IMG/VR virus record: IMGVR_UViG_3300018471_000107
Location: 1-4,285 of that record
Length of the DNA stretch: 4,285 nt
Reading direction: 5' to 3' (one strand)
Source of the DNA: a virus
Lineage: Duplodnaviria > Heunggongvirae > Uroviricota > Caudoviricetes
Shown one piece after another: positions 1 through 4,285 of this stretch; the first letter of the stretch is position 1; each line of letters opens with the position of its first letter. Made by a program: the position numbers and the translations under genes. The notes beneath the pieces are model-generated. The model was not told where the DNA came from and ran no database searches. It was given only the letters and a program-made list of their open reading frames with translations.

Positions 1-209
1 CCCGTAAAATGACAGGAATTGTCAAAACCTTTGACGGCAAAAGCGGCAAGGGTCTTATCACCCCATCCGATGGTCGTATCGATGTCCAGCTTCATGTTTC
101 AGCGCTCAATCTCCGCGATGCAGAAGAAATTACCACCGGATTACGCGTGGAATTTTGCCGGATAAATGGTCTGCGTGGCCCTTCAGCTGCCAATGTTTAC
201 CTTTCATGA
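1..209 (+). CDS. cspF: Cold-shock-like protein, CspF/CspH family; 5' end probably just outside the window
   Basis: ORF 9..209 translates to [23 protein letters not shown]...[20 protein letters not shown], which matches the divergent CspF/CspH cold-shock paralogs as I recall them (degenerate RNP motifs, C-terminal GLRGP.AANVYLS). Bases 3-8 are in frame and read R-K before the ATG, consistent with the MSRKMTG N-terminus of CspF/CspH, so the true start is probably 3 nt before position 1. Stop TGA at 207-209. Symbol given by synteny with Q and ydfU as in Qin; it could equally be called cspH-like. Confidence 0.85.
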
Positions 210-263
210 GCTATATTAAAGCTTTAATTTCAGGCCCCATCGGATCACACATGGAGAGTTTTT

Positions 264-353
264 ATGAATAACCCCGTCTGTCTTGATGACTGGTTGATTG
301 GCTTTAAAAGCTTATGCTGTACTTTGGCCGTAATAGCTCTGCTAATAATATAA
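264..353 (+). CDS. Hypothetical small hydrophobic peptide (29 aa), candidate small membrane protein
   Basis: ATG at 264 is preceded by GGAGAG at 253-258 with 5 nt between the motif and the ATG (7 nt from the GGAG core). Translation is [29 protein letters not shown], stop TAA 351-353, with a hydrophobic C-terminal stretch. Not on the supplied ORF track because it is short. No homology is claimed; an AT-rich spacer can produce such ORFs by chance. Confidence 0.25.
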
Positions 354-501
354 TAAGCAGACTCATTGTGTTTAGGGACATTGTACTGGAAGAAAACATT
401 TTAAACATCAGGCAAATAACCAAGTCACCAGCTAAATAATAAGTTAACAGACATGAGTCCCGGGATGAGATTCAACATTACCATTGCCCCATTTAAAGCA
501 C

Positions 502-537
502 AAAACCCGCTCATCAGCGGGTTTTCTACTTTTTCTT
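502..537. terminator. Bidirectional intrinsic terminator; candidate tR' for the late transcript and terminator for cspF
   Basis: Stem 502-510 AAAACCCGC pairs with 517-525 GCGGGTTTT (9 bp, 5 GC pairs) around a 6-nt loop TCATCA. On the plus strand it is followed by TTTTCTACTTTTTCTT; on the minus strand by TTTT GTGCTTT. It sits between the convergent cspF and Q genes. Confidence 0.6.
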
Positions 538-558
538 AACGTCGGGTATACAAAGCCC

Positions 559-599
559 ATCGTTGAAAAAATTTTATCCATATTTTTTGAAAAATGCAA
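559..599 (-). promoter_or_regulatory. Candidate late promoter pR' with an AACGAT pause-like element in the initial transcribed region
   Basis: On the minus strand just after the Q stop: -35 TTGCAT (599..594), 17-bp spacer, -10 TAAAAT (576..571), then TTTTTC and AACGATGGG (564..556). From memory, AACGAT is the sigma70-dependent pause element of lambda pR'. The terminator at 502-525 lies about 40-60 nt further downstream. Q-binding element is not identified. Confidence 0.45.
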
Positions 600-630
600 A
601 CATCATGTCGCCATCTTCAGCAAAAATCAT

Positions 631-1383
631 TTATCTCGTCACCTTCCTCAATTGCGCTTCCGCGTATGCTTCTTCCTGCCAGCACTTTGTTACCAGTTTA
701 CCAATGACGTCCGCATACCCCTTATACCACTGATAATCGGTCAGGTCTGGTACCAGCTTCTGGACATGACGTCGTGCCAGCGTGGTCGGTAAACGACTAA
801 ATCGGTTTCCATTACAACGCCCACAAATCTTATATACCGGTACGCCATGAAACCGGGTTCTTTTTTCATCCAGAACAATCCCTTTACCCTTACACCCTCT
901 GCACGCTGTGCTGGCTTCGCCCTTACCATGGCAATGCTGACATAGTTCCTTCACCCATTCTTCCTTGATTACAGATTCCCCGCGTCTGTAGTGTTTCACC
1001 ACTTCGCGCAATACATTATAAAATCCCGTACCTGAACAATGCTCACAGCGAGCCTTACTTGCCGCAGACCTGGAGTAATCAGCAAAGGCAAAACTCACGA
1101 GGTAAGGAATAATCTGTAACCGGATTTCTTCACTCAATTTGTTCAATGTCGGGTTATCCAGTGCCATCGCGTAATTTAGCAGGCCTTCAATCGCAAACTG
1201 AGGGTCCTGAACACCAACTTTTGCCAGAAATAAGGCCAACCCAAGTGGTGCTTTCGACTGCACCATCCCCTGCGCTGCCATTACATCCGTAATTGTTAAA
1301 CAACCGGTGCCTGTCGCTGGAGCGTCATCGCTCAATTTTGGAGATTTTGGGGAGTAATATTTTGGTAAGGCTTCAAGGTTCAT
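631..1383 (-). CDS. quuQ: Antitermination protein Q, QuuQ/Phage_antitermQ type, 250 aa
   Basis: ORF 631..1413 translation matches the Q antiterminator family as I recall it. I place the start at the internal ATG 1383 (MNLEALPKYY...) because GGAGAA lies 5 nt upstream of it, whereas the track start at 1413 would overlap the upstream gene by 17 nt. This gives 250 aa and a 13-bp gap to the upstream gene, the same length and spacing I recall for quuQ and ydfU in E. coli K-12 Qin. Four CxxCxG motifs are present. Stop TAA 631-633. Confidence 0.85.
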   Translation of the reverse strand: MNLEALPKYYSPKSPKLSDDAPATGTGCLTITDVMAAQGMVQSKAPLGLALFLAKVGVQDPQFAIEGLLNYAMALDNPTLNKLSEEIRLQIIPYLVSFAFADYSRSAASKARCEHCSGTGFYNVLREVVKHYRRGESVIKEEWVKELCQHCHGKGEASTACRGCKGKGIVLDEKRTRFHGVPVYKICGRCNGNRFSRLPTTLARRHVQKLVPDLTDYQWYKGYADVIGKLVTKCWQEEAYAEAQLRKVTR

Positions 1384-1396
1384 GCTCGTTCTCCAC

Positions 1397-2392
1397 TTAC
1401 GCCAGTACGCCAATTGCCAGCGCGCGATCGATAAAACGAAATATCAGCTCCAGTTGGGAGCCATACTTCTCTTCAAATGCCACGGTATCCGCATGCAGCT
1501 CGTCGTGATGCTTTCTGCACAAAGGCAACACAAAAAGGTCATGCGCTTTTGTTCCCATTCCACCCTGACCGTGACCTATCAGGTGGTGGGGATCATCAGC
1601 AGGCTTTCCACAACATGCACACGGCTGTGTCTTAACCCAGCGCGTGTACTTTTCATTAACCCAGCGGCGACGTTTGGGGCGTAACATAAAAGACTCCGGC
1701 GACTCCGGCTCCACTTTCAGCGCCAGCACCTTTTTCGCCTTATCCTGGATGATGCTGGTGGCAGGAACCGAAGGAACAAGGTCACTTTCCCGGGTGACAG
1801 ACGGCACAACAGGCTTCGGTAATCTCAGTGCCTTACGGGCTGCACTTTCCGGTAAGGCATCCGCCAGGTCATTACGAACCAGCCACCAGCATAGTTCCGG
1901 CATTGTCACAACGTGACTATCATCAAAACCGAGATCCCGACGCACAACAGACAACACCCAGCGGGCACAGTTATCCGTTGCCATTGATTCCAGCCGTTCC
2001 GTAAACTGATCGCGCAGCTGGTTATCGCAGTGCCAGCACAGACGGATTGCACCCGGAGCGTGTCGCATTGTGGTCATGTTCTCGCTGTGCCAGTCGGAAT
2101 GAGGCCACTGGCAGCCTTTTTCACGAAGTAACCAGCTTTCAAGACATTCCACGCCACCAGCACGACGGATCACTGCCTCATCGCGGAACACGGCCCGAAC
2201 GGCAGGATCATCCGCCAGCGGTTGTGATGCCGCCGGAACGGCACCACTGGCGAAAGATGAATAACGCTCCGGCTCAGGCTCCAGCAGGACACGCCCCTGC
2301 ATAAACAGGGGCATCAGCTCTGAACCTGGCCTGAACAATACGATCCCCATACGCGGGGCAATTTCAGGGGTCAGTAGTGCTCTCACGGTCAC
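1397..2392 (-). CDS. ydfU: DUF968 family protein (YdfU-like) with a C-terminal HNH-like Cys/His cluster; putative nuclease or zinc-binding protein
   Basis: 331-codon ORF ending TAA 1397-1399. The C-terminus reads PCACCGKPADDPHHLIGHGQGGMGTKAHDLFVLPLCRKHHDELH, the Cys/His signature I associate with DUF968/YdfU prophage proteins. It sits immediately upstream of Q, as ydfU does in Qin. The track start is GTG at 2392, 1 nt after the upstream stop; GTG at 2386 with GAGGTG just upstream is a likelier start, so the start is uncertain by a few codons. Confidence 0.8.
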   Translation of the reverse strand: MTVRALLTPEIAPRMGIVLFRPGSELMPLFMQGRVLLEPEPERYSSFASGAVPAASQPLADDPAVRAVFRDEAVIRRAGGVECLESWLLREKGCQWPHSDWHSENMTTMRHAPGAIRLCWHCDNQLRDQFTERLESMATDNCARWVLSVVRRDLGFDDSHVVTMPELCWWLVRNDLADALPESAARKALRLPKPVVPSVTRESDLVPSVPATSIIQDKAKKVLALKVEPESPESFMLRPKRRRWVNEKYTRWVKTQPCACCGKPADDPHHLIGHGQGGMGTKAHDLFVLPLCRKHHDELHADTVAFEEKYGSQLELIFRFIDRALAIGVLA

Positions 2393-2393
2393 C

Positions 2394-3203
2394 TCAATGA
2401 ACGGTATCGAGCAGCTTTAACAGCTCAGTGAATCGGGATTCGAAGAAATGCGGCTGCGTCTCGCGCGGATTTGCAGGACTGGTGATGTTCTTGCCGAACA
2501 TGCAGCCTTTCGCCGTCAGCGACCAGAATTTTTTGATGTTGTTAATCGCTGTACGGCTGTATCGTTCGCGCTGTTCGACGATCCCCAGCTTCGCCATCTG
2601 GTGATATGCCTGATTAGCCGTCAGGCGGATACCATACTGCTTCAGCAGTGCACTCAGTGACAGCGTGGGGCGGCTTGAGCCATCAGGCGCGTCAGCAGGA
2701 GCATCAATGGCATAACGCGGTGCCAGATTCGGTAAGCCAACAGCCTCCTGGAGTTTCTGACAGGCCCCAAGCACAGATGAGTTAGACAGATTTAACTCCC
2801 GGCGCATAAAGTCCAGCAGAATCACGCCAGCCTGCATCTTGTCAGCAGCCTGTCCGGATAACTTTTCCGGCGCGCTGGTTACCATATCGAAAGTACGGAT
2901 CACCTTCAGATGGAATGACGGGCTGATCCACATTGCATAGGCATACACCAGTTCCTTACAGACATACGTTCCCCGTTCATTTCCCCCATGAATCACACTA
3001 ACTGGGTCAACACCCAAATTCTGGGTGTTGATTAATTCATGAACAAGATCAACAGTTTGTTGGCTGGAAAGAAACTTTCCTGGCTCCTTGGTTCTGGCAT
3101 TTGCACCAGATGCTACTGCTGCGCGATGCAGATCGTTCAGGCTGTAACGCTCATAAGCATCACGACGAACTTCAATACCATCAATGACCATCAGATTATT
3201 CAT
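2394..3203 (-). CDS. KilA-N domain-containing protein (putative phage antirepressor or DNA-binding regulator), 269 aa
   Basis: The N-terminal ~100 aa (VIDGIEVRRDAYERYSLNDL...GTYVCKELVYAYAMWISPSFHLKVI) fit the KilA-N/APSES-like pattern, including the G-T-[WY]-V and W-[IL]-S-P-x-F signature. The C-terminal ~160 aa is unassigned. Start ATG 3203 is preceded by AGAGGGGAAA; stop TGA 2394-2396. Confidence 0.8.
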   Translation of the reverse strand: MNNLMVIDGIEVRRDAYERYSLNDLHRAAVASGANARTKEPGKFLSSQQTVDLVHELINTQNLGVDPVSVIHGGNERGTYVCKELVYAYAMWISPSFHLKVIRTFDMVTSAPEKLSGQAADKMQAGVILLDFMRRELNLSNSSVLGACQKLQEAVGLPNLAPRYAIDAPADAPDGSSRPTLSLSALLKQYGIRLTANQAYHQMAKLGIVEQRERYSRTAINNIKKFWSLTAKGCMFGKNITSPANPRETQPHFFESRFTELLKLLDTVH

Positions 3204-3222
3204 ACTTCGTTTCCCCTCTTAA

Positions 3223-3321
3223 TCAGGCAGCTGCACCCGCCGTTTTCTCGTACTTACTGATAGTGATCTCGACCTTCCCTTCCGGGATAACCGGTCCCCA
3301 CTCCACCAGCATTCTTTTCAC
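3223..3321 (-). pseudogene. rusA: rusA 3' remnant: 32 in-frame codons after the internal amber codon, encoding the RusA C-terminus
   Basis: Reading through TAG at 3322-3324 in the same frame gives VKRMLVEWGPVIPEGKVEITISKYEKTAGAAA, then TGA at 3223-3225. This aligns with the RusA C-terminus as I recall it ([28 protein letters not shown]). The TGA lies 19 nt upstream of the KilA-N start and its RBS, the normal operon spacing. Confidence 0.6.
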
Positions 3322-3612
3322 CTAGCTGTCGTCTTCCCACACACCCGCGTGGGTCAGGGCGTCAAACAGCGCCTTGTTATAGTTGTCCAGATCGCGGATC
3401 CTGTTATCCGGAGGAAACAACACGATCTCCACTGAAGCAGGTGCCGACGTTGGTTTCGGCAGACGACGTAACTGCTCAACTATTGCTGCGCACGCCGCGC
3501 TCTGGAATTTTCGCCCCGCCGCGCTTATCAGGCTCTTACCAGCAAACGCCCCTTTGTTGGGGTGTCGCCAGTACGTGTTCACGCTGGGCGGAAAAGGCAG
3601 GATCAGCTTCAT
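3322..3612 (-). CDS. rusA: Crossover junction endodeoxyribonuclease RusA, truncated by a premature in-frame amber codon (96-aa product)
   Basis: Translation MKLILPFPPSVNTYWRH...DNRIRDLDNYNKALFDALTHAGVWEDDS matches RusA, including the catalytic acidic motifs RDLDN and WxDD. The ORF ends at TAG 3322-3324, at a position where E. coli RusA has Gln. Start ATG 3610-3612 overlaps the upstream stop in an ATGA arrangement. Confidence 0.8.
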   Translation of the reverse strand: MKLILPFPPSVNTYWRHPNKGAFAGKSLISAAGRKFQSAACAAIVEQLRRLPKPTSAPASVEIVLFPPDNRIRDLDNYNKALFDALTHAGVWEDDS

Positions 3613-3935
3613 ACTTTCAGGCCCCTCTCATGTAACCAGTGGGTTGCACGCAGCCTTGCGTTTTCCTCACCGGCAAGCAGTGAGCGGATAATCCCGACCG
3701 CCTCGCTGTCGTCGTCCTTCACCGCGGTATGAAGCGTGATGCCCCGGGCCACGCCACGCTTTATCGTGATGACGCCTTTTTTCTCCAGTGCGCGAAGATG
3801 CTCCACCGCTGCATTCACTGAACGGTATCCCAGCATGGTTGCCACCTCCTGATTGGTTGGCGGGAAGCCACGTTCTTTCTGATAAGAAATCAGCATATCC
3901 AGCACCTGCTGCTGGCATTGAGTTAACGTCGTCAT
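3609..3935 (-). CDS. LexA N-terminal DNA-binding domain protein lacking the S24 peptidase domain, 108 aa
   Basis: Translation MTTLTQCQQQVLDMLISYQKERGFPPTNQEVATMLGYRSVNAAVEHLRALEKKGVITIKRGVARGITL aligns closely with the LexA winged-helix domain ([66 protein letters not shown]). It is followed by a linker-like AVGIIRSLLAGEEN resembling LexA LVGRVAAGEP, then ends 20 aa later with no catalytic core. I chose ATG 3933-3935 (TAATG overlap with the upstream stop, G-rich RBS) over the track start at 3968. Stop TGA 3609-3611. Confidence 0.75.
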   Translation of the reverse strand: MTTLTQCQQQVLDMLISYQKERGFPPTNQEVATMLGYRSVNAAVEHLRALEKKGVITIKRGVARGITLHTAVKDDDSEAVGIIRSLLAGEENARLRATHWLHERGLKV

Positions 3936-4285
3936 TAAGCCCCCACGTAATTCCCTGACAGATACCACTCATCACCCGATGCAGCGCGCTTGCTGCTTTT
4001 CCGTAAGCACCGCTCACGACGCGCAAGAAAATTGTTTCGCTCTTGCTGGGAGTGGCTTTCACGGAATGCCGCCATCCACACCGTTGCAGCACGACGGTAT
4101 AAGCCCCTGGACTCCAGTTCTTCCGCCTGGCGGGTCAGGCACAAAATCTCCCGCGGGTCGTTAGTGCCGACATAGAAATTGCGCACAGGTCTGGTTTCAC
4201 GAACTGGTTGCGGTTCCGCCTCCTGCGCTCTCTCAGTCAGGCGCGGGAAATGTCTGCGTGTATCCCCTTCACAACGGTGAGCCAC
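3935..4285 (-). CDS. PerC-family transcriptional regulator (Pch-like), partial; 5' end lies beyond the right edge of the window
   Basis: The frame is open to the window edge (116 codons). It contains QAEELESRGLYRRAATVW, matching the PerC/Pch signature AE.LE..GLWRRAA..W as I recall it. Stop TAA 3935-3937 overlaps the next start. A GTG at 4184-4186 is a possible internal start but has no clear RBS. Confidence 0.6.
   Translation of the reverse strand: MAHRCEGDTRRHFPRLTERAQEAEPQPVRETRPVRNFYVGTNDPREILCLTRQAEELESRGLYRRAATVWMAAFRESHSQQERNNFLARRERCLRKSSKRAASGDEWYLSGNYVGA

Follow-up and report, generated by a model that had tools for sequence, protein, structure and literature searches.

A probable late-gene regulatory cassette of the lambda pR'-qut-tR' kind, previously unannotated, downstream of the Q gene in a Qin-type prophage of Escherichia coli

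What is encoded between the Q gene of a Qin-type lambdoid prophage and the two genes, cspF and ynfS, that run toward it? The stretch of DNA considered here (the window) comprises 4,285 nucleotides, positions 1 to 4,285 of the IMG/VR virus record IMGVR_UViG_3300018471_000107, and is a piece of such a prophage of Escherichia coli. It carries on the minus strand a Q antiterminator gene of the QuuQ/YdfT type (631-1383, 250 amino acids); the RefSeq record of E. coli K-12 leaves the interval between ynfS and the Q gene, ydfT, without any annotation. We believe, with a probability of about 0.9, that positions 495-599 of the minus strand constitute the late-gene regulatory cassette of a Qin/SfV-type lambdoid prophage, built and used like the pR'-qut-tR' region of phage lambda. 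It is an ordinary kind of element, in a previously unannotated copy. The evidence consists of the architecture of the cassette, the family of its Q protein, a mapped start site, sigma70-associated pausing, a mapped RNA 3' end, the boundary of the module and the order of the genes downstream.

The sequence itself has the following arrangement. The stop codon of Q occupies 631-633, and a sigma70 promoter lies 32-62 bases past it on the minus strand, with the -35 hexamer TTGCAT (599-594) 32 bases beyond the stop codon, the 17-bp spacer TTTTCAAAAAATATGGA (593-577) and the -10 hexamer TAAAAT (576-571). The stretch TTTTTC (570-565) leads from the -10 hexamer to position 564, the first A of AACGAT, where transcription starts. 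The element AACGATGGG (564-556) thus occupies +1 to +9 and reads as a sigma70-dependent pause element composed of the -10-like AACGAT (+1 to +6) and the discriminator-like GGG (+7 to +9). A preliminary description, made from the sequence only, had named these hexamers, the spacer and the nonamer, and all of them are in the places it gave. Taken alone, the promoter-like hits are not significant (a consensus scan found 4 against 2.7 expected in 1.5 kb), and AACGATGGG with at most one mismatch is expected by chance about once per window; the composite of -35 hexamer, 17-bp spacer, -10 hexamer, 6 bases and AACGATGGG, with 3 mismatches allowed, was found in none of 200 dinucleotide-preserving shuffles.

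Positions 440-660 of the window are 100% identical to E. coli K-12 MG1655, and therefore the published K-12 data are directly applicable to the cassette; over positions 1-1400 there is a single difference, at position 802 within Q. In NC_000913.3 ydfT is at 1642489-1643241, which corresponds to window 631-1383, i.e., the window position plus 1,641,858 gives the coordinate in version.3. The coordinates of version.2 are presumably 1,976 bp lower here, owing to IS1, 1-bp and IS5 differences; the 777-bp part of the offset was checked and puts the start site of the DLP12 prophage exactly 6 bases past a TATGCT hexamer.

With this conversion, the start site 1640446(-) of NC_000913.2 falls on window 564; it was obtained by differential RNA sequencing (Thomason 2015) and is given in Supplementary Data 1 of Sun et al. 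2021 (PMC7876045). The latter work also reports pausing by sigma70-affinity RNET-seq in delta-greAB cells. Its genome-wide list has 1640429(-) in the 12th row with a score of 6881, together with 1640430(-) (score 5783); sites at 1640428 and 1640431-33 are weaker. In Supplementary Data 2, 1640429 ranks as the 4th-strongest pause of the G1d class, 1640433 appears in the proximal G1p list, and the sigma70-WT sheet also lists the pause of the cassette (1640430, score 1186). In the window these sites are at 546-551 on the minus strand, i.e., polymerase bound to sigma70 is paused in vivo with RNA 3' ends 13-18 nt past the start, most strongly at 547 and 548. A sigma70-containing pause is thus found near the promoter both in wild-type and in delta-greAB cells, alongside a -10-like hexamer followed by GGG.

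The other end of the transcript is provided by Term-seq (Adams et al. 2021, PMC7815308), which lists the 3' end 1642356(-) of NC_000913.3, assigned to the 'orphan' class, in each of the three growth conditions. The 61 nt given as its context are an exact match to window 548-488 and put the 3' end at 498, the C of UUUUGUGC, 8 nt beyond the G-C stem described below. A start at 564 and an end at 498 give an RNA of 67 nt, so the K-12 data agree with the earlier expectation of a short RNA (roughly 60-70 nt) that has its start near 564 and its end near 500. The RNA is present without prophage induction, since the start site and the 3' end both come from uninduced K-12 cultures. Its predicted folding energy is -26.2 kcal/mol (z = -5.55 against shuffles).

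A second minus-strand 3' end is listed by Term-seq at window 330 (NC_000913.3 1642188), antisense to ynfS, in one growth condition; it is 7 nt past a hairpin of UCUGCU and AGCAGA separated by 12 nt. This suggests that some transcription passes tR' or begins beyond it.

These signals do not appear to have been attributed to the prophage before. The words 'prophage' and 'Qin' do not occur in the main text of Sun et al. (PMC7876045), and neither this work nor that of Adams et al. (PMC7815308) ties the start, pause or 3'-end signals to Qin. Our search of the literature on quuQ, ydfT, cspF and the Qin late promoter found no description of the cassette. The part of the Cappable-seq supplement available to us (PMC4782308) has no rows at its coordinates.

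The mapped 3' end belongs to an intrinsic terminator downstream of the pause, a hairpin followed by a U-tract. The hairpin, AAAACCCGCT/GATG/AGCGGGTTTT on the minus strand (525-502), has a stem of 10 pairs (525-516 with 511-502) rather than the 9 counted in the preliminary description, and a 4-nt loop; it begins 40 nt after the start site, the distance which that description had estimated. With its tail UUUUGUGCUUU the terminator, tR', extends over 495-525, and at the homologous site in phages SfV and Ayreon a terminator is annotated. Beyond the hairpin comes TTTTGTGCTTT when the minus strand is read and TTTTCTACTTTTTC when the plus strand is read. With AAAA ahead of the stem and UUUU behind it, the hairpin of the K-12/Qin variant has the form of a terminator on either strand; the A-tract is weaker in the SfV-type variants, which have no converging genes. 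A terminator scan gives the same hairpin with TTTTCTACTTTTTC (502-535, plus strand) as a putative terminator of cspF-ynfS, and it is a reasonable inference from the sequence that it ends transcription from the cspF side. The Term-seq tables contain no plus-strand 3' end at the hairpin (16423xx-16424xx); cspF was possibly silent in those conditions.

Which Q family the cassette belongs to determines what it should be compared with. The gene upstream encodes, as judged from its sequence, a full-length antiterminator of the Q-lambda family: the protein matches Pfam family PF03589 (E = 3.6e-54) and the solved Q-lambda structures 7UBM (PDB, E = 4.6e-36) and 4MO1, and RefSeq labels ydfT of K-12 as 'putative antitermination protein Q'. 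Its alignment with 7UBM is split in two by an insertion of about 43 residues in the zinc-ribbon arm, which brings extra CxxCxGxG zinc motifs (DnaJ_CXXCXGXG, E = 1.3e-8). Among 13 aligned family members the long arm is widespread (phi80, HK225, ST104 and others), the 207-residue form of lambda and P22 being the short variant. Two positions invariant in all 13 members, G39 and the C-terminal T of the VTR motif, are sites of antitermination-defective mutations in lambda Q (PMC9388147). Comparison with phage 82 had been suggested earlier. The same paper distinguishes PF03589, the Q-lambda family, from the Q21 and Q82 families, and so the proper comparison is lambda; assignment of the window Q to the phage 82 or 21 type was rejected on these Pfam and PDB matches and the family definition.

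The insertion occupies approximately residues 121-159 of the window Q, and in most family members it has 40-70 residues with two extra CxxCxGxG motifs. The arm that bears it is the part of lambda Q that contacts the Q-binding element (QBE) and sigma region 4, and no solved structure covers the longer arm.

The likeness to lambda pR', the sigma70 pause and tR' that was proposed at the outset is borne out by direct comparison. In lambda (NC_001416) the promoter reads TTGACT-17-TAAATT-TGACTC-AACGATGGGTTAATTCG. Both systems have a PF03589 Q and the same order of Q stop, promoter, pause element and terminator; a 17-bp spacer, 6 nt from the -10 hexamer to +1 and an identical AACGATGGG at +1 to +9; a pause about 16-18 nt from the start; and a 5' RNA stem using AACG(A). 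In lambda AACGAT at +1 to +6 is the -10-like pause element, accompanied by a discriminator-like GGG (PMC4005639) at +7 to +9, and the pause is mainly at +16 (PMC5001585). The differences are that the identity between the window Q and lambda Q is only about 33-41%, the former having the arm insertion with its additional zinc-binding motifs, that neither the -35 nor the -10 hexamer is the same and the spacer departs at 6 of its 17 bases, that the pause is about one base further downstream, and that tR' is shared with converging cargo genes. The terminated RNA of 67 nt is also much shorter than the lambda 6S RNA, which has about 194 nt.

The cassette likewise fits the G1d class of Sun et al. (PMC7876045), whose members combine a -10 hexamer and a 6-nt spacer with a -10-like region further down and with pausing 16-20 nt from the start. 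The class was described for host promoters likened to lambda pR', whereas the member discussed here is, in our reading, a phage pR' itself.

The same layout extends well beyond lambda. We surveyed Q genes at 33-100% identity in annotated phages and in one genome per species. Exact AACGATGGG is present in 60 of the 113 distinct downstream regions of the Q-lambda family, and most of the others have variants with one or two base changes; the motif is always 5-7 bases past a -10 hexamer, with a -35 hexamer 16-18 bp upstream of the latter and a hairpin terminator after it. An identical layout follows Q genes whose products are only 33-42% identical (P22, HK620, phi80, HK225, SEN34, Klebsiella, Xenorhabdus and others), and in P22, HK620 and phi80 the curated annotations of pR', qut and the terminator are at matching places. 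In the P-late/t-late cassette of P22 the start is at position 1402 of its locus, with a terminator at 1432-1460; in phi80, whose Q is also long-armed, the -10 hexamer is at 1576-1581 and the terminator at 1634-1662. These terminators are very near the promoter and so imply short RNAs of about 60-75 nt, as in the window. P22 (AACGATGGA) and phi80 (AACGCTGGG) differ from the window in belonging to other Q specificity groups with other spacer (QBE) sequences.

A comparable site was noticed in the DLP12 prophage of K-12. The 2nd-strongest row of the genome-wide sigma70 RNET-seq list has its start site at 576452 (.2) and is located in DLP12 (NC_000913.3 ~577196-577276; our locus L182, 1697-1777), where the promoter TTTACG-15-TATGCT-6-AGTGGTTACTTCG is followed about 25 nt later by the hairpin terminator AAACCCGCCGTCGAGCGGGTTTTT, approximately 170 bp upstream of essD. 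They have the look of the DLP12 late promoter and its terminator, now cut off from quuD by nmpC and IS5.

Among closer relatives, conservation delimits the cassette. SfV, mEp460, Ayreon, 15 Stx2c-converting phages and others share ~90% identical DNA with the window from the Q gene to position 502 and none beyond (Megablast against phage genomes). Homology to intact phages therefore ends at the outer edge of the hairpin, which we consider the module boundary. We compared 28 distinct Qin/SfV-type versions of the 150 bases past the Q stop. Apart from a decayed copy in phage HannyBb, hardly any change is seen in the -35 hexamer, in the spacer, at A2 and T6 of the -10 hexamer or in AACGATGGGC; the -35 hexamer is unchanged in 27 of the 28 versions, and HannyBb again differs. 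The -10 hexamer is TAAGAT or TAGGAT in relatives. The linker ahead of the hairpin is variable, and the sequence past the U-tract is unrelated. The hairpin itself is kept while its sequence changes (CCCGCU/AGCGGG, CCCGC/GCGGG, CCGC/GCGG, CCUCGC/GCGGGG with a UUCG loop). Such a pattern is what is expected of a mobile Q-pR'-tR' module with the terminator as its outer boundary. The modules of SfV, mEp460, Ayreon and the Stx2c phages encode Q proteins 93-94% identical to that of the window; SfV-type modules differ from it in having TAAGAT instead of TAAAAT, another linker and another hairpin loop, and late genes or stx2c on the same strand after the terminator in place of the converging cspF and ynfS.

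HannyBb has two copies of the region. The decayed promoter and pause copy is right after Q (809-961 of our locus L007), with no -10 hexamer left and with AATGATGAG as its pause element; some 1.7 kb further (2501-2656) the intergenic module is present a second time and intact.

The spacer is the place to look for the Q-binding element. It is almost invariant in the 28 versions, and the pattern nnTTC[AG][AG]AAA..TGG is retained in Q relatives at 63-72% identity. Each Q subgroup has its own spacer motif, that of the Qin group being nnTTC[AG][AG]AAA...TGG; in lambda, TTGA..TGG occupies the equivalent positions, and the annotated Q-binding site of phi80 covers spacer positions 2-8. Lambda Q touches positions 1-4 and 11-13 of a 13-bp QBE (PMC9388147). 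The geometry of the Qin spacer is compatible with both the 13-bp lambda QBE and the phi80 site, and we propose TTCA (591-588) with TGG (580-578), i.e., 578-591 on the minus strand, as a candidate QBE on the basis of conservation.

A Q cassette is defined as a Q gene, pR', a sigma-dependent pause element, a terminator and late genes (PMC9388147), and the last of these are present downstream on the strand of the cassette in K-12, PhiR42_1, SfV, Ayreon and an Stx2c phage. Lysis genes had been expected beyond the left edge of the window, and in K-12 the minus strand past the terminator does carry cspB, a holin gene (essQ; the record label is essD), ydfR, rrrQ and rzpQ, with cspF, ynfS and ynfU on the strand opposite to cspB-rzpQ. 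The complete phage PhiR42_1 has the arrangement of K-12, with holin and lysozyme and then the terminase. Holin and lysin genes are downstream of the cassette in SfV and Ayreon, and an Stx2c phage has, past the cassette, a methylase gene, two tRNA genes and the genes for the A and B subunits of Stx2c (Pfam RIP and SLT_beta). The genes cspF (9-209, plus strand; CSD domain, E = 4.5e-22) and ynfS (264-353, plus strand, a small gene), both annotated in RefSeq, are cargo genes (9-353) converging on the terminator of the cassette and are not found at the corresponding position in SfV, Ayreon, mEp460 and the Stx2c phages.

We presume that the cassette works as follows. Host RNA polymerase with sigma70 initiates constitutively at 564; sigma70 region 2 would then rebind AACGAT(GGG) on the non-template strand, and the scrunched complex pauses once some 17-18 nt of RNA have been made. 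When Q is absent, the polymerase resumes, stops at the hairpin and releases the 67-nt RNA ending at 498. Once made, Q would bind in the spacer that separates the two promoter hexamers, join the paused complex together with NusA and form an RNA-exit nozzle; the modified polymerase would be termination-resistant and would pass tR' and later terminators. The antiterminated transcript would run antisense over ynfS and cspF, then through cspB and into essQ, ydfR, rrrQ and rzpQ. In this scheme the dependence of the pause on AACGAT, the binding of Q to the spacer, the read-through due to Q and the involvement of NusA are inferred by analogy with lambda (PMC9388147, PMC4005639, PMC5001585).

Several points weigh against such a reading. 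The literature examined contains no experiment showing antitermination by QuuQ at the cassette; the K-12 prophage is defective, and its Q may never be expressed. The late genes are ~1.8 kb away, beyond two oppositely oriented cargo genes. The proposed QBE is put forward from conservation, and 11 of the 17 spacer bases agree with lambda. Lambda has beside its pause element a -35-like TTGACT, which aids Q in repositioning sigma region 4 and for which the window offers no good counterpart (TTTTTC). The strongest pause ends are 16-17 nt past the start (an RNA of 17-18 nt) compared with +16/+17 in lambda, and the base after U17 is A, not the G favoured at elemental pause sites. Finally, the offset between the two versions of the K-12 sequence is presumed, though two promoters map to the exact base with it.

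Could the signals have another meaning? It is tempting to regard the 67-nt RNA as a trans-acting regulatory small RNA (sRNA) like StxS, the cassette persisting for the benefit of the host rather than for control of lysis genes. The RNA accumulates in non-induced K-12, with high Term-seq scores in three conditions, and it has a protected 5' hairpin, a terminator hairpin and between them an A-rich single-stranded linker, AAGAAAAAGUAGAAAA in the K-12/Qin variant. StxS, a regulatory RNA that arises when the pR' transcript of an Stx phage is terminated, offers a precedent as a short constitutive RNA from an antiterminated prophage late promoter, and such promoters have been proposed as a general source of sRNAs (PMC7547250). 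However, no sequence relation of StxS to the 67-nt RNA was found; the linker is the least conserved part of the RNA, and thus no conserved seed is apparent. An Rfam scan at E <= 1 gave no match beyond throat-1, which is at chance level (15.5 bits against a threshold of 124), and our literature search found no Hfq, ProQ or RIL-seq evidence, nor any sign of processing or of target mRNAs. We therefore consider this explanation unlikely, and an sRNA role would in any case be compatible with the function of the cassette, as an added role.

Still less probable, in our opinion, is that the promoter serves mainly for antisense control of cspF and ynfS, or for transcribing cspB, independently of Q. The minus-strand 3' end at 330 (1642188) in one Term-seq condition is in its favour, but the same cassette occurs in phages that lack cspF and ynfS at this place, homology indicates that the two genes are cargo inserted past the module boundary, and the strong 3' end at 498 means that most transcripts end before reaching them. 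The remaining explanation is a chance resemblance, in which the hairpin is only the terminator of cspF, and the promoter and AACGAT motifs are accidents of AT-rich DNA. Pairs of promoter hexamers alone are indeed no commoner than in shuffles, and the chance frequency of the nonamer with at most one mismatch was given above; this has to be set against the absence of the composite from all 200 shuffles, the start, pause and 3' end mapped in vivo at the predicted bases, the base-perfect conservation in divergent phages, and the recurrence of the layout behind Qs of only 33-42% identity. We believe that chance can practically be disregarded.

Returning to the late-gene cassette, its RNA raises a further question concerning the bases that form the pause element. 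Both the minimum free energy and the centroid fold of the 67-nt RNA open with a hairpin at +1, from which an unpaired A-rich linker leads to the terminator hairpin. In the 5'-terminal hairpin (538-564, minus strand) AACG (+1 to +4) pairs with CGUU (+24 to +27), and UGGG (+6 to +9) with CCCG (+19 to +22). A comparable 5' stem is found in lambda (AACGA/UCGUU, +1 to +5 with +19 to +23) and also in P22, phi80, HK225, SEN34 and others. Across the Q-lambda family, changes in the pause element are matched by changes in the 3' arm, which is at approximately +19 to +29: AAUGA/UCAUU in Kluyvera, Providencia, Morganella and Lonsdalea; AACAA/UUGUU in Serratia, Symbiopectobacterium and Pectobacterium; AACA/UGUU in ST104, an Erwinia phage and five genomes; AACGG/CCGUU in Yersinia; CAUG/CAUG in a Serratia; and AAUA/UAUU in Brenneria. 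Within the Qin group, recent single changes preserve wobble pairs (AAUGAU or GACGAU opposite CGUU).

The MAFFT alignment of 79 regions was ungapped and left the 3' arms out of register, and for this reason an alignment-free search was chosen, for a Watson-Crick stem of at least 4 bp starting at +1 or +2, with shuffle and swap controls. The 5' stem is present in 82% of the 79 unique initial transcribed regions and in 84% of the representatives of 25 clusters, compared with ~20-22% after shuffling of the tails (maximum 52% for representatives in 1000 shuffles) and 27% when the 5' arm was combined with the downstream region of another arm class. Tolerance of wobble pairs and the variable loop length point to the RNA rather than the DNA level. 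The possibility that the 3' arm CGTT is a second -10-like element on the other strand was considered and rejected: the required T6 is absent, and the loop length varies.

We tentatively propose, at somewhat less than even odds, that throughout the family the first 4-5 nt are part of a co-evolving, selected 5' hairpin, so that the pause signal and an RNA structure share the same bases, probably for protection from decay. In E. coli, 5'-terminal stem-loops protect RNAs from decay that depends on the 5' end; by analogy, the likeliest role of the hairpin would be to protect the short RNA and the long late mRNA in this way. Alternatively, it might act in the Q-loaded complex after the RNA has been threaded through the Q nozzle. 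In the structural and mechanistic literature on Q that we examined the hairpin was not found described, although older literature may describe it.

Other features of the window can be reported briefly. Between the Q stop and the -35 hexamer there is a small inverted repeat, UGCU/GAAGAU/GGCG (608-623, minus strand), whose position is kept from lambda (UUGCCA/CGGA/UGGCAA) to the Qin/SfV type (CGCC/GAAGAU/GGCG in the SfV type); the variant GGCA/CGGA/UGCC of our locus L137 looks compensatory with respect to GCCA/CGGA/UGGC of lambda. The repeat occupies the place expected of an UP element or of a 3' stabiliser of the Q mRNA. Upstream of Q, all on the minus strand, are ydfU (DUF968), a gene for a KilA-N protein, rusA and a gene for a LexA-like DNA-binding protein. 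The rusA homologue (3223-3612) is broken by an in-frame TAG into an open reading frame of 96 amino acids, the stop and 32 further in-frame codons; rusA of SfV is intact (129 amino acids), and the interrupted copy is probably either a pseudogene or an amber allele. From cspF as far as the ydfU region the window resembles K-12, and beyond that region (1397-3203) it has KilA-N, rusA and LexA-like genes as in SfV and Ayreon; the K-12 counterpart of 1397-3203 (our locus L001, 5397-7044) has the rem-hokD-relBE genes instead. YdfU has 331 amino acids in the window and 349 in K-12, and the mosaic junction with K-12 is in or beyond ydfU.

If our reading is correct, Qin accounts for two K-12 signals, one of the strongest sigma70-dependent pauses and an 'orphan' Term-seq 3' end: they mark its late promoter and its terminator, which yield an unannotated 67-nt RNA. 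The same module, with a ~94% identical Q, is upstream of stx2c in Stx2c-converting phages, so that K-12 might be used as a safe model of the switch controlling this toxin. In Q-lambda-type cassettes throughout Enterobacterales, AACGATGGG at +1 is a distinguishing feature and aids the annotation of prophage late promoters. Should the 5' hairpin prove functional, it would add an RNA-level component to what is, in textbooks, a DNA-level switch.

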